Origin: an uncultured Candidatus Micrarchaeota archaeon
GTDB lineage: Archaea > Micrarchaeota > Micrarchaeia > Micrarchaeales > CABMGC01
Assembly (NCBI GenBank): GCA_963833485.1
Contig: CAWHXT010000005.1
Location: forward strand, 347,545-411,544
Direction: 5' to 3'
DNA length: 64,000 bases
How positions within the stretch are numbered: the first letter of the stretch is position 1; each line of letters starts with the position of its first letter. Of this stretch, positions 61,356-63,798 are shown in pieces. Under the pieces are notes generated by a model. That model was not told the DNA's origin. It saw only the letters and a list, made by a program, of their open reading frames with translations, and did not search any database. A program made the position numbers and the translations under genes.

Positions 61356-62297
61356 TTACATATTTGTAGTTATAGCCCTAGATTGGACTATCCACAGATT
61401 TCCTTTTCTAATGCACCATTCAATGTCCTGTGGCCTTCCAAATACCTTCTCGATTTTTATGCACTCTTTAGCTATGCGCCCCACAGTCTGATTATCAAGA
61501 CAATATTTCTTAGTCACGACACTGCCTTGTGGCAAGTGCACAGCGTGTTTTGCTTTGATGCTGTAAATCATCTTCTTAGTTCCTAGAACACGTTTGCTTA
61601 CCTTACCCTTGCTTTTTTCGAATACGTAATAATCAGGAGTAACTGAGCCAGATACCAAAGTCTCCCCAAGACCTATAGCCGCCTCTATTATCACCTTGTC
61701 TCTATCACCAGAAATCGGATCTGCAGTGAAGGTAACCCCAGCAACATCCGCATTTATCATATTCTGTACCACAACTGCGATGCTTGGCATACCCTTTATC
61801 CTATGCTCTTTTCTGTAAGCTATCGCCCTCTTATTCATGAGCGACGCCCAGCATCTTTTTATGTGCGTCGAAACATCTTTCACATCTGCGTTCACTCCAA
61901 GGAAAGTGTCATGCATTCCAGCAAAAGACGTTTTCAGCGAATCTTCACCTATAGCTGAAGACCTGACTACCACACGTGTAGCATTTAGAGAAGATAAACA
62001 CCTCTTTATTGCAGAAGTCAGATCAGCATCAAATTTCATAGAGATTATTCGTTTCCTTGACTCCTTGAGGATTCTTTCAAGCTCGGCACCATTTGCTTCC
62101 TTTACCTTTGAAATCATCCCACTGAGCCCGTTTTTCTCTACTAGCTTCAGAAATGCCTTCGAGCTGATCACGAAACCATTCGGAACGTTGAATCCTCTCT
62201 TGTAAAGGTAAATCAATGAAGACCCCTTTCCCCCAAACTCCAACTTTGGTGATGCGTTAGTTTTTGTAAATGGAACAACGAAATTTGTCATCGTCAT
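61356..62297 (-). CDS. PEP/pyruvate-binding (PPDK_N, ATP-grasp) domain protein, stand-alone
   Basis: FGGKGSSLIYLYKRGFNVPNGFVIS and VVRSSAIGEDSLKTSFAGMHDTFLGV. ATGA overlap with the upstream gene. Confidence 0.82.
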   Translation of the reverse strand: MTMTNFVVPFTKTNASPKLEFGGKGSSLIYLYKRGFNVPNGFVISSKAFLKLVEKNGLSGMISKVKEANGAELERILKESRKRIISMKFDADLTSAIKRCLSSLNATRVVVRSSAIGEDSLKTSFAGMHDTFLGVNADVKDVSTHIKRCWASLMNKRAIAYRKEHRIKGMPSIAVVVQNMINADVAGVTFTADPISGDRDKVIIEAAIGLGETLVSGSVTPDYYVFEKSKGKVSKRVLGTKKMIYSIKAKHAVHLPQGSVVTKKYCLDNQTVGRIAKECIKIEKVFGRPQDIEWCIRKGNLWIVQSRAITTNM

Positions 62298-62644
62298 TTT
62301 ATCACTTCATATATCACTCCGTTGCTTTTACTCGCATCAACTTTGATCATCTCTCCGTCCTTTATCATTTTTGTAGCTTTTTCAGTGCCTATTATACAAG
62401 GAACGCCAAGCTCACGGCTTACTATCGCAGCATGGCAAGTAAATCCTCCCTCATCAGTTATTATTGCAGCTGCTCTGTGAAGAAAAATCATGTAGTCTGG
62501 AGTGGTCATCTTCGTCACCAATATCTCTCCTTTCTTCAGGGTATTGCCCTCTTCAGGACTGAGTACGACTCTTGCTTTTCCTACAACTACCCCTTTCGAT
62601 GCAGTTCTTCCTTTTACTATCATTTTAAAAGGCATCAGTTTCAC
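62294..62644 (-). CDS. PEP-utilising enzyme mobile (swivelling phosphohistidine) domain protein, stand-alone
   Basis: GKARVVLSPEEGNTLKKGEILVTKMTTPDYMIFLHRAAAIITDEGGFTCHAAIVSRELGVPCIIG carries the catalytic His in TCHAAIV. Confidence 0.85.
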   Translation of the reverse strand: MKLMPFKMIVKGRTASKGVVVGKARVVLSPEEGNTLKKGEILVTKMTTPDYMIFLHRAAAIITDEGGFTCHAAIVSRELGVPCIIGTEKATKMIKDGEMIKVDASKSNGVIYEVIK

Positions 62645-63798
62645 CTTGCTTTAATGCAATCTTTCTTGTACTTCTCTGCTTTAGTACCTGAAATTACTTT
62701 GGTCACTTCATTGTTCCTCATGCTAAACGCAAAGGCCTGCATTCTTTTCTCTATTTCTTTCTTGTTGCACTGTCCTCCTCTATCTAGAAGATCTTCCAAT
62801 TCCAGATGCGTCAGGTACTTTATCTCTTCGGATGTTATCCCCAGACGCAGAGCAAGCTCATCGAACAGGTTTCTAGTGTAGAAAAACGCCTTTCCGAACG
62901 CATCCATCCTATAAGTTCTAAGGAAGATATACTGCTGGAGTGCTTTTATGTACATTAAAATGTCTGCTGGTATTTTCATCTTAGAGAGAAGAGCCGTCAT
63001 CTCATCAACTTGCTCTTTCCTTCTCCTTCTTATATTTTCGAGCTGTTCCTCTGGATCCGCCCCTCCAGCAATGAGGCTCGTCAACTCGATTATAACATGA
63101 TTTTCGTCCTGTGCTGGATTCGACATAGAAACCATCGGCACCCACGCGTAGTCCTCCAGATACTTACTTATCATTCTCTTAATTCTAAGAGGCATTACTA
63201 AAGTGTTTGAATCATCCTTCTGCTTATCAATCATCTTTCTTAACTTTGGAGTTTTCATTATCACTGTAGCTATTTTAAGCAATTCTTCCTGTGCTTTGCT
63301 TGAGTCTGCAGGCAGGCTTGGTACGGCCATTCTTGTAAGGAACTCTTGCGCAGCTTCCTTGTCCTTCATATTCTCCTTAGCCCACTGCAATATTAAGTTA
63401 GAAAGGGTTGACTGTAGCGCATGAGGAAGCATCATGTATCTCGCAGAGTTAATATAACGGTTCACGAATTCAGCGAACCTCCACCTGAGCTCGTATGTCG
63501 TCTTCTCATGTAAATTTTCACTTCCTATCTTAGCTGCATAACTCACAAGCTCTTCAGCCACATTCTGGTTGTCTATTGCTAGTGTAAGTAGGTATGTTGG
63601 ATCTTCCTTGCTCTTTCCCACAGCTTCCTTACCTTCCTTCTTCAACTCTTCAGAGTTTACCCACGCCGAAATCCCAGACTTGCCTTCTGGAAGAACGTCA
63701 AAATAAGTGTATCCCTCATGCCTATTCCCAATCATGTTCGCATAAACCTGAAATGTTGGGAACCTTCTTGTTACAAAGTTGAAAGGTTTTATTTCCAT
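62641..63798 (-). CDS. Helical protein of unknown function, first gene of the three-gene dikinase-like operon (candidate substrate-binding module)
   Basis: 385-aa ORF, translationally coupled (GTGA overlap) to the swivel-domain gene. I recognise no motif. Confidence 0.55.
   Translation of the reverse strand: MEIKPFNFVTRRFPTFQVYANMIGNRHEGYTYFDVLPEGKSGISAWVNSEELKKEGKEAVGKSKEDPTYLLTLAIDNQNVAEELVSYAAKIGSENLHEKTTYELRWRFAEFVNRYINSARYMMLPHALQSTLSNLILQWAKENMKDKEAAQEFLTRMAVPSLPADSSKAQEELLKIATVIMKTPKLRKMIDKQKDDSNTLVMPLRIKRMISKYLEDYAWVPMVSMSNPAQDENHVIIELTSLIAGGADPEEQLENIRRRRKEQVDEMTALLSKMKIPADILMYIKALQQYIFLRTYRMDAFGKAFFYTRNLFDELALRLGITSEEIKYLTHLELEDLLDRGGQCNKKEIEKRMQAFAFSMRNNEVTKVISGTKAEKYKKDCIKAR

Follow-up and report, generated by a model that had tools for sequence, protein, structure and literature searches.

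The window analysed here, i.e. the whole stretch of DNA under study, comprises 64,000 nt of an uncultured Candidatus Micrarchaeota archaeon (contig CAWHXT010000005.1, positions 347,545 to 411,544). Close to its right end lie three consecutive genes on the minus strand, here named A, B, and C, which encode a putative dikinase distributed over three polypeptides. A preliminary description of the window, made without database searches, had located three minus-strand genes at this site, and all three open reading frames (ORFs) were confirmed. The genes and their junctions are as follows:

62641..63798, minus strand: gene A, ORF of 385 aa with an ATG start; predicted second-substrate (acceptor) binding module
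62294..62644, minus strand: gene B, ORF of 116 aa when read from a GTG; stand-alone swivel phosphohistidine carrier domain
61356..62297, minus strand: gene C, ORF of 313 aa with an ATG start; stand-alone ATP-grasp (PPDK_N) nucleotide-binding module
62633..62650, minus strand: A/B junction, with GGTGA (including the TGA stop codon of A), 5 nt, and the ATG of B; an alternative GTG start overlaps the stop codon as GTGA
62294..62297, minus strand: B/C junction, ATGA, shared by the stop codon of B and the start codon of C; kept in a second strain (L016)

Junctions of the three genes

The preliminary description had reported 4-nt overlaps at both junctions. Direct reading of the sequence confirmed the tetranucleotides GTGA at 62641..62644 and ATGA at 62294..62297, but the A/B overlap is doubtful. 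Gene B has a second possible start, an ATG at 62635..62633, which is used by the public gene call and yields a protein of 113 aa. A Shine-Dalgarno-like GGTGA, which overlaps the stop codon of A, is located 5 nt upstream of this ATG. Judged by this context, the ATG at 62635 is more likely to be the true start of B than the GTG at 62644. With the ATG start, A and B are separated by a gap of 5 nt and do not overlap by 4 nt; the coupling is tight under both starts.

Both junction sequences are base-for-base identical in the second strain L016, which has about 96% nucleotide identity to the window over the aligned 550 bases. Because L016 stems from a separate sequencing run, the split is real and not an artefact of sequencing or assembly. 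The same observation bears on the possibility that the three ORFs are non-functional fragments of a once-fused gene, which was broken by a frameshift or an assembly error. The A|B break lies in a linker, a place that tolerates frameshifts, which would be compatible with decay. However, the junctions are unchanged in L016, the GGTGA motif precedes the ATG of B at the spacing given above, and every ORF encodes a complete domain without internal stops.

The ATP-grasp and the swivel protein

Protein C matches PF01326 (PPDK_N) with an E value of 5.1e-80 over residues 21-311, and it aligns end to end with the RPH (rifampin phosphotransferase) model (positions 2-312) and the phosphoenolpyruvate (PEP) synthase model (positions 3-338) of NCBIfam. 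The motifs GGKG and RSSAIGED...SFAGMHDT hold Lys24, Arg112, and Thr131. In the enzyme of Listeria (RPH-Lm), the ATP-site residues are Lys22, Arg117, and Thr136 (PMC4844700). From the motifs and their spacing we infer that these two sets of residues correspond to each other; the spacing of Arg112 and Thr131 is 19 residues, as is that of Arg117 and Thr136. Among the 120 C homologues listed, stand-alone proteins with lengths of about 305-315 aa predominate.

Protein B matches PF00391, the mobile (swivel) domain of PEP-utilizers, with an E value of 4.6e-27, and its best NCBIfam alignments cover the swivel region of PEP synthase and RPH-like models. The domain assignments of the preliminary description, i.e. 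a stand-alone swivelling phosphohistidine domain for B and a stand-alone ATP-grasp PPDK_N domain for C, were thus corroborated. The T/SxxGGxxxH motif of swivel domains (PMC12167813) is found in B as TDEGGFTCH. The catalytic His is His71 (numbering of the 116-aa form), it lies in TDEGGFTCHAAIVSRE with the codon 62432..62434, and it is invariant across 102 family members. Within GGFTCH (62432-62440), the catalytic His is preceded at a distance of two residues by a Thr, and PEP synthase and PPDK carry their regulatory phospho-Thr at this site. In RPH and HpeH, the site is occupied by a Met (PMC12167813).

The NCBIfam models for PEP synthase, RPH, PigC/RedH, and PRK06241 each contain regions that correspond to B and C, and the two proteins align with these over their full lengths. 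The scores stay far below the curated cut-offs in every case: B reaches 139 bits and C 245 bits, compared to a cut-off of 598 for NF005057 (PEP synthase). These scores do not favour the view that the locus encodes an ordinary PEP synthase in pieces, in which B and C work with a TIM-barrel protein encoded elsewhere and A is unrelated to both. Such an arrangement would fit the best NCBIfam matches of B (E 1.2e-40) and C (E 1.2e-72), which include PEP synthase models, and also the PEP synthase-type GGxTCH of B, with its Thr two residues before the His (motif: PMC12167813). In addition, the window represents 64 kb of a contig of 458 kb. Within these 64 kb, no PF02896 (PEP-utilizers_C) TIM barrel was found, in agreement with the preliminary description, which had noted that a PEP/pyruvate TIM-barrel domain is missing: a PPDK query containing PF02896 met the regions of B and C alone in a tblastn search. 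Searches of the same type revealed no paralogue of A, B, or C elsewhere in the window.

Protein A and its relation to rifampin phosphotransferase

The preliminary description recognised no motif in A, and indeed the protein has no match in Pfam or NCBIfam. A Pfam hit below the cut-off (ABC-3C CTD2, E 0.026) was dismissed, as the fold and the fusions point elsewhere. A word-indexed search with A retrieved nothing beyond A itself, and the same search with an alignment of the A family was swamped by the swivel domain and returned mostly Bacillus RPH-like proteins. An exhaustive phmmer search yielded 833 homologues of A at E <= 0.001, counted as cluster representatives at 50% identity.

The fold of A was predicted with AlphaFold from a 115-sequence alignment. 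The model is mostly helical and has a pLDDT of 96.5 and a pTM of 0.93. For comparison, the structures of RPH-Lm (PDB 5FBS/5FBT/5FBU and 5HV1-3) are available. A Foldseek search of the PDB with the model resulted in six matches at E <= 0.001, all of which are RPH-Lm entries (E 3.6e-6 to 3.1e-4, probability 1.0, query TM-score (TMq) 0.52-0.55, about 395-444 aligned columns, 14-15% identity). The next match has an E value of 0.017.

Profile comparisons lead to the same family. With hhalign, a profile of 13 A sequences matched a Bacillus RPH-like protein with a probability of 54% (E 1.3e-4), and a profile of 102 A-B sequences matched the same protein with a probability of 99.7% (E 3.5e-25, 407 columns). 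In the latter alignment, residues 62-385 of A fall on residues 431-760 of the Bacillus protein, and residues 62-385 together with B on 431-867. The NCBIfam models for RPH and PRK06241 align through the A-like region plus the swivel domain in fused relatives, e.g. residues 94-498 of P0123 with positions 450-861 of the RPH model, whereas the PRK08296 (PpsA-like) models align almost only with the swivel part of the A-B relatives. PF27448 is among the precomputed Pfam domains of the Bacillus RPH-like proteins, whereas neither A nor the A-B homologue P0271 is assigned this domain.

A single residue of A can be followed through these alignments. Arg294 (codon 62917..62919) is part of the motif LRTYR, is invariant in the 13-sequence alignment, and falls on the Arg of YREYPK of the Bacillus protein in both hhalign alignments. 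This YREYPK fits the numbering Arg666-Glu667...Lys670 of RPH-Lm, in which the exchanges Arg666Ala and Glu667Ala abolish rifampin inactivation (PMC4844700). Taken together, the predicted fold and the profile alignments show that A and the rifampin-binding domain of RPH, i.e. its central, second-substrate domain, are homologous. The role that had been proposed for A, a substrate-binding module, is supported by this: RPH-Lm is the sole match of the model at E <= 0.001, and A is fused with the swivel domain in most of its best homologues.

The two proteins A and B were also modelled together, concatenated head to tail as in the natural fusions. The resulting model has a pTM of 0.90, with low confidence at the junction residues only. 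Against RPH structures that have the swivel domain on the rifampin-binding domain (5fbt, 5fbu, and 5hv1), Foldseek gave TMq values of 0.62-0.63 and E values of about 1e-16 to 1e-15. The best match to RPH has a TMq of 0.63 (E 3.5e-16), compared to 0.55 for A alone. The match to structures of the G527Y mutant of RPH is worse (TMq 0.43). Because the A+B model superposes better than A alone on RPH with an engaged rifampin domain, it implies that B would dock on A in the manner of the RPH swivel domain.

Architectures of homologues

The best 149 of the 833 A homologues were classified with hidden Markov models built from A, B, and C. The great majority, 116 of the 149, are A-B fusions of about 480-510 aa. 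A occurs alone in 11 of the 149; about seven of these are full-length, and the others are fragments. A single-chain C-A-B arrangement was found in 4 of the 149, and in one of the single chains, P0155, successive regions align with C, A, and B. The rest are tandem forms, e.g. (A-B)2, (A-B)3, A-B-A-B-C, and A-B-A-B-A-B-C-A-B, with lengths of up to 2309 aa. Pfam confirmed the PEP-utilizers and PPDK_N parts in a sample of A homologues. The fusions show that A, B, and C belong together.

The architectures bear on two of the alternatives. A PEP synthase in pieces requires that A has no part in the enzyme, but A is homologous to the central domain of RPH and is mostly fused to B; in the single-chain C-A-B proteins it has C and B as its neighbours, and no TIM barrel is present. 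Together with the low scores and with the absence of PF02896-like sequence from the window, these results make a split PEP synthase highly improbable. For a decaying gene, the prevalence of A-B fusions among the homologues would be in favour, but a frameshift of the common C-A-B chain cannot yield the order A-B-C.

Genomic contexts of relatives

A scan of GTDB genomes revealed four loci, all of them in Patescibacteria. The following loci illustrate the range of arrangements:

L007, Patescibacteria: an A-B fusion followed by C
L008, JGI contig: C followed by an A-B fusion
L002, Aerophobetes: C followed by A (22% identical to A of the window, E 5e-21); no B was found
L010 (JAGVYS010000031), 1-8650, Woesearchaeota: four A-B paralogues around one C, one of which overlaps C by 4 nt
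L009, JGI contig: C, a radical SAM protein, a stand-alone B, and two unknown proteins
L003, JGI contig: a C-B fusion

The closest relatives of A were found in a scan of metagenomes, namely in the contigs L011, L012, L014, and L015, and the full-length matches in L011, L012, and L014 have 34-35% identity to A. In all four contigs, A and B are split with a 4-nt overlap; in L013 they are fused. The split arrangement, the distribution of which had been a question of the preliminary description, is thus recurrent: the A|B fission is present in four related metagenome contigs and in the second strain L016. Inside the A homologue of L014 there is a frameshift, which would suit a decaying gene, but the recurrence of the split with its 4-nt overlap at this degree of divergence argues against it. 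In view of this and the intact junctions described above, we regard decay as most improbable.

In three of these contigs, a divergent gene just upstream of A|B encodes a CHAT protease and HD-CE domain protein with a length of about 1030 aa (L011:830-3928, L012:1505-4600, and L014:1027-4140). Downstream, a conserved alpha/beta hydrolase of 257-269 aa follows the module in L008, L011, L012, L013, and L015. In L012 and L015, the hydrolase gene is followed by genes for a membrane protein of 194-209 aa, which has no Pfam match, and for a fused double ABC ATPase of the EcfA type; L012 additionally has an EcfT/CbiQ protein after this ATPase. The stretches with the hydrolase and importer genes are:

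L012:6486-10278
L015:760-2673
L013:2994-5179
L008:6417-7199
L011:5848-6424

These neighbourhoods suggest that the dikinase of the relatives might be linked to a small molecule that is imported and processed. A search of the 64-kb window for the hydrolase and the energy-coupling factor (ECF) neighbour genes found no homologues.

In several proteins, i.e. P0126, P0131, P0157, P0190, and P0215, the A-B unit is repeated two or three times, and a single C may be present or missing. These polyproteins and the Woesearchaeota locus look like cases of one nucleotide-binding module that serves several acceptor modules. They would also be compatible with another type of enzyme, either a phosphorylation-driven ligase similar to PigC/RedH, in which the substrate on A would be phosphorylated only to give an activated intermediate for a condensation, or a protein-directed phosphorelay, in which phosphorylated B would hand its phosphate to other proteins, similarly to HPr. 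In their alignments, B and C fit PigC and RedH roughly as well as they fit RPH, and several acceptors could in principle be reached by an untethered swivel domain. On the other hand, the scores for PigC and RedH are far under the cut-offs, the operon in the window contains no genes for a second substrate or for biosynthesis, and no other A-like acceptor is encoded in the window. A ligase or protein relay is, in our judgement, unlikely.

The two loci L009 and L003 deviate from the others. In the analysed stretches (L009:1-8933 and L003:1-13272), a swivel domain that is stand-alone or fused to C is accompanied by radical SAM proteins and by unknown proteins of about 360-410 aa that are unrelated to A. 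The surroundings include HEPN plus nucleotidyltransferase genes and a type IV secretion system coupling protein in L009, and ThiF, JAB, PD-(D/E)XK, and TCAD9 in L003. Both contexts look mobile, defence-like, or conflict-related. The 364-aa protein that adjoins the C-B fusion in L003 was considered as a counterpart of A and rejected, as it is unrelated to A.

Proposed enzyme system

The domain matches, the predicted fold of A, the fusions in relatives, the proximity of C to A or A-B in other lineages (L007, L008, and L002), and the persistence of the split make it likely that A, B, and C constitute one enzyme system, namely a three-component RPH-type small-molecule dikinase. The core of the preliminary description, an RPH/PEP synthase-like dikinase in three polypeptides, is retained herewith. 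By analogy to the characterised members of the family, the system probably phosphorylates a small molecule. Rifampin is very unlikely to be the substrate.

Several observations weigh against this interpretation. B and C score slightly better with PEP synthase models than with RPH models. Comparisons of A or its profile with the PDB sequences (phmmer and hmmsearch) did not reach RPH and gave nothing meaningful, so that the link between A and RPH runs through the comparison of folds and through profile alignment by way of fused relatives. The position of Glu667 of RPH is occupied by Thr295 in A, and by Thr in the A family, while the position of Lys670 is occupied by Met298, with Arg297 (codon 62908..62910) beside it. 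Lastly, no C gene is present within the contigs L011, L012, L014, and L015, i.e. A and B are not always accompanied by a C gene in cis; contig L013 also has no C gene.

We infer the chemistry, the direction of transfer, and the physical interactions from analogy, and the following reaction cycle is proposed. C would bind ATP and transfer the beta-phosphoryl group to His71 of B via diphosphoryl transfer, whereby the gamma-phosphate would be lost as inorganic phosphate (Pi) and AMP would be released. B, a free swivel domain of 12 kDa, would then leave C and dock on A, the cleft of which may hold the acceptor, most likely a small molecule bearing a hydroxyl group. The phosphoryl group would pass from the His of B to the acceptor, and the invariant Arg294 of A may stabilise the transfer. 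The net reaction would be ATP + X-OH + H2O -> AMP + Pi + X-O-phosphate. The tight packing of the genes should lead to their co-expression.

A more far-reaching, and rather speculative, possibility is that free B is a diffusible phosphocarrier. The three proteins would then form an ATP-driven small-molecule relay similar to the phosphotransferase system (PTS), in which one ATP-grasp charger serves one or several acceptor modules. The four A-B paralogues around one C, the polyproteins with multiple A-B units, and the A|B pairs without a nearby C fit this idea. If it is true, the relay could belong to a salvage route that has so far escaped notice, in which a nutrient or cofactor precursor would be phosphorylated after its import and thereby trapped. 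Such a route would operate in archaea and in bacteria of candidate phyla with reduced genomes, and the cue for it is the hydrolase and the ECF importer in the relatives.

Neighbouring genes in the window

Upstream of gene A, two further features were annotated:

63799..63881, no strand assigned: intergenic region of 83 bp between A and the TrmB-like gene, which are divergent; putative promoter region
63882..64000, plus strand: TrmB-type winged-helix gene, divergent from A and cut by the end of the window; PF01978 with E 5.4e-12 on the 59-aa product

The intergenic region contains A/T-rich TATA-like elements for both divergent genes, and a GGAG is found 11 nt before the start of A. The TrmB-type product comprises 59 aa in an identical public contig (L001). 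In this contig (L001:601-1352), an ORF of 185 aa with a sub-threshold match to DUF7436 starts 14 nt after the TrmB-type gene in another frame. The two could represent either one split or frameshifted regulator or two separate genes. A role of the TrmB-type gene as a local regulator is possible. Its divergent orientation and its start at 63882 are as first described, but the hint at sugars in the preliminary description does not hold: because the product is only a 59-aa winged helix, i.e. a DNA-binding domain, it says nothing on sugars.

The other neighbours of the dikinase genes are CDC48, an M50 peptidase, two NUDIX genes, and a tRNA-Gln, which are of a housekeeping type. The NUDIX genes are located at 55550-56110 (minus strand) and 57790-58182 (plus strand), and the genes for tRNA-Gln, the M50 peptidase, and CDC48 lie between them and the dikinase genes. 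A search with the PADLOC defence models gave no match for A, B, or C, and a scan of viral contigs gave no relatives; neither result favours a reading of the window locus as a defence system.

More distant parts of the window contain an intein-bearing RNA ligase of the RtcB family (4289-7318, minus strand, 1009 aa, NF038162 with 1051 bits) and two tRNA matches of Rfam that were not called by ARAGORN, i.e. 7405-7502 (plus strand, 98 nt, probably with an intron) and 29677-29746 (minus strand, weak, 34.5 bits). The cluster 30805-49198 encodes an archaeosortase-like protein (30805..32331), a protein of 1173 aa with a TafC-like region, an ATPase of the FlaI type (47780..49198), and several large ORFs without a family match; from its gene content it looks like a locus for an archaeal type IV pilus or surface structure. 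Further genes of archaeal type are those for the CCA-adding enzyme and ribosomal protein S6e; together with the RtcB, the archaeosortase, the FlaI-like ATPase, and CDC48, they mark the window as archaeal.

Comparison with known systems

The roles known for RPH-like dikinases are the inactivation of an antibiotic, the first step in the degradation of phenolic compounds, and the synthesis of pigments. These enzymes represent a large, mostly unexplored family, which the present locus extends into the archaea. The homologues of A form a distinct clade of at least 833 cluster representatives at 50% identity, the substrate module of which has neither a function nor an annotation. The hydrolase and ECF importer neighbours in the relatives are a concrete lead to the substrate class, and this broader clade, with its possible link to import and salvage, holds more potential than the locus itself.

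RPH-Lm defines the wider family of “small-molecule dikinases” (Stogios et al. 2016; PMC4844700). The system described here shares with it the ATP-grasp, the helical second-substrate, and the swivel His module, as well as the His motif, the Lys/Arg/Thr pattern, and Arg666, which is kept as Arg294. In contrast to the single chain of RPH-Lm with the order C-A-B, it consists of three polypeptides in the order A-B-C. A has 385 aa compared to about 430 aa of the rifampin-binding domain, to which it is about 15% identical, and Glu667 is replaced by Thr.

In phenylphosphate synthase (PpsAB(C)), CreHI, and HpeHI, the ATP-grasp module is also a separate protein of about 35-40 kDa beside a His-bearing component. 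In phenylphosphate synthase, the ATP-grasp-type beta subunit (40 kDa) passes a diphosphoryl group to a His of the alpha subunit (70 kDa), and both subunits are encoded side by side in a single operon (PMC6114531). The dikinases HpeHI and CreHI likewise consist of two components, and the ATP-grasp protein of HpeHI forms no stable complex with its partner, which unites the substrate and swivel domains (PMC12167813). In such two-component RPH homologues, the phosphohistidine shuttles between two proteins, and the His-bearing component alone can move phosphate between substrates (PMC12167813, PMC6114531). Unlike in the Micrarchaeota locus, where they are split into proteins of 385 and 113 aa, the substrate and swivel domains of PpsAB, CreHI, and HpeHI are combined in one protein of about 70 kDa. 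A further difference is the archaeal host, and carboxylase or aromatic catabolic genes are not found near the locus in the window. In phenylphosphate synthase, the alpha gene precedes the beta gene.

PEP synthase and PPDK have homologous ATP-grasp and swivel domains, and B has the GGxTCH motif in common with them. The second-substrate module of the present system is of a different fold, and the window lacks the PF02896 TIM barrel. The alpha-glucan water dikinase (GWD) of plants is a single chain composed of a substrate-binding part, a His domain, and a C-terminal nucleotide-binding domain. Its domain order equals the gene order observed here, but its substrate part consists of carbohydrate-binding modules and not of an RPH-like helical domain. 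As in enzyme I and HPr of the PTS, a phosphohistidine would be carried between separate proteins, and the N-terminal domain of enzyme I is a homologue of the swivel domain (weak Foldseek matches). However, the PTS uses PEP and not ATP as donor, HPr is unrelated to the swivel fold, and the acceptors of the PTS are proteins.

These comparisons define what is new. The preliminary description had regarded the gene order as a permutation, with the ATP-grasp gene moved to the end. This does not stand as a novelty: relatives of A use both orders, fused A-B-...-C chains exist, and the PpsAB genes are already adjacent. The separation of the ATP-grasp protein is not new either, as it is known from PpsAB, CreHI, and HpeHI. 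Our searches of the literature revealed neither a three-component form nor the clade of A-B proteins of about 500 aa, and a free-standing phosphate-carrying part appears to be undescribed. What sets the locus apart is the A|B fission, which frees the swivel domain. It would mean that an enzyme of this type can be fully taken apart, with its phosphate carrier as a free protein, and the three-part enzyme would be a handy system for studying how an untethered swivel domain recognises its two docking sites.

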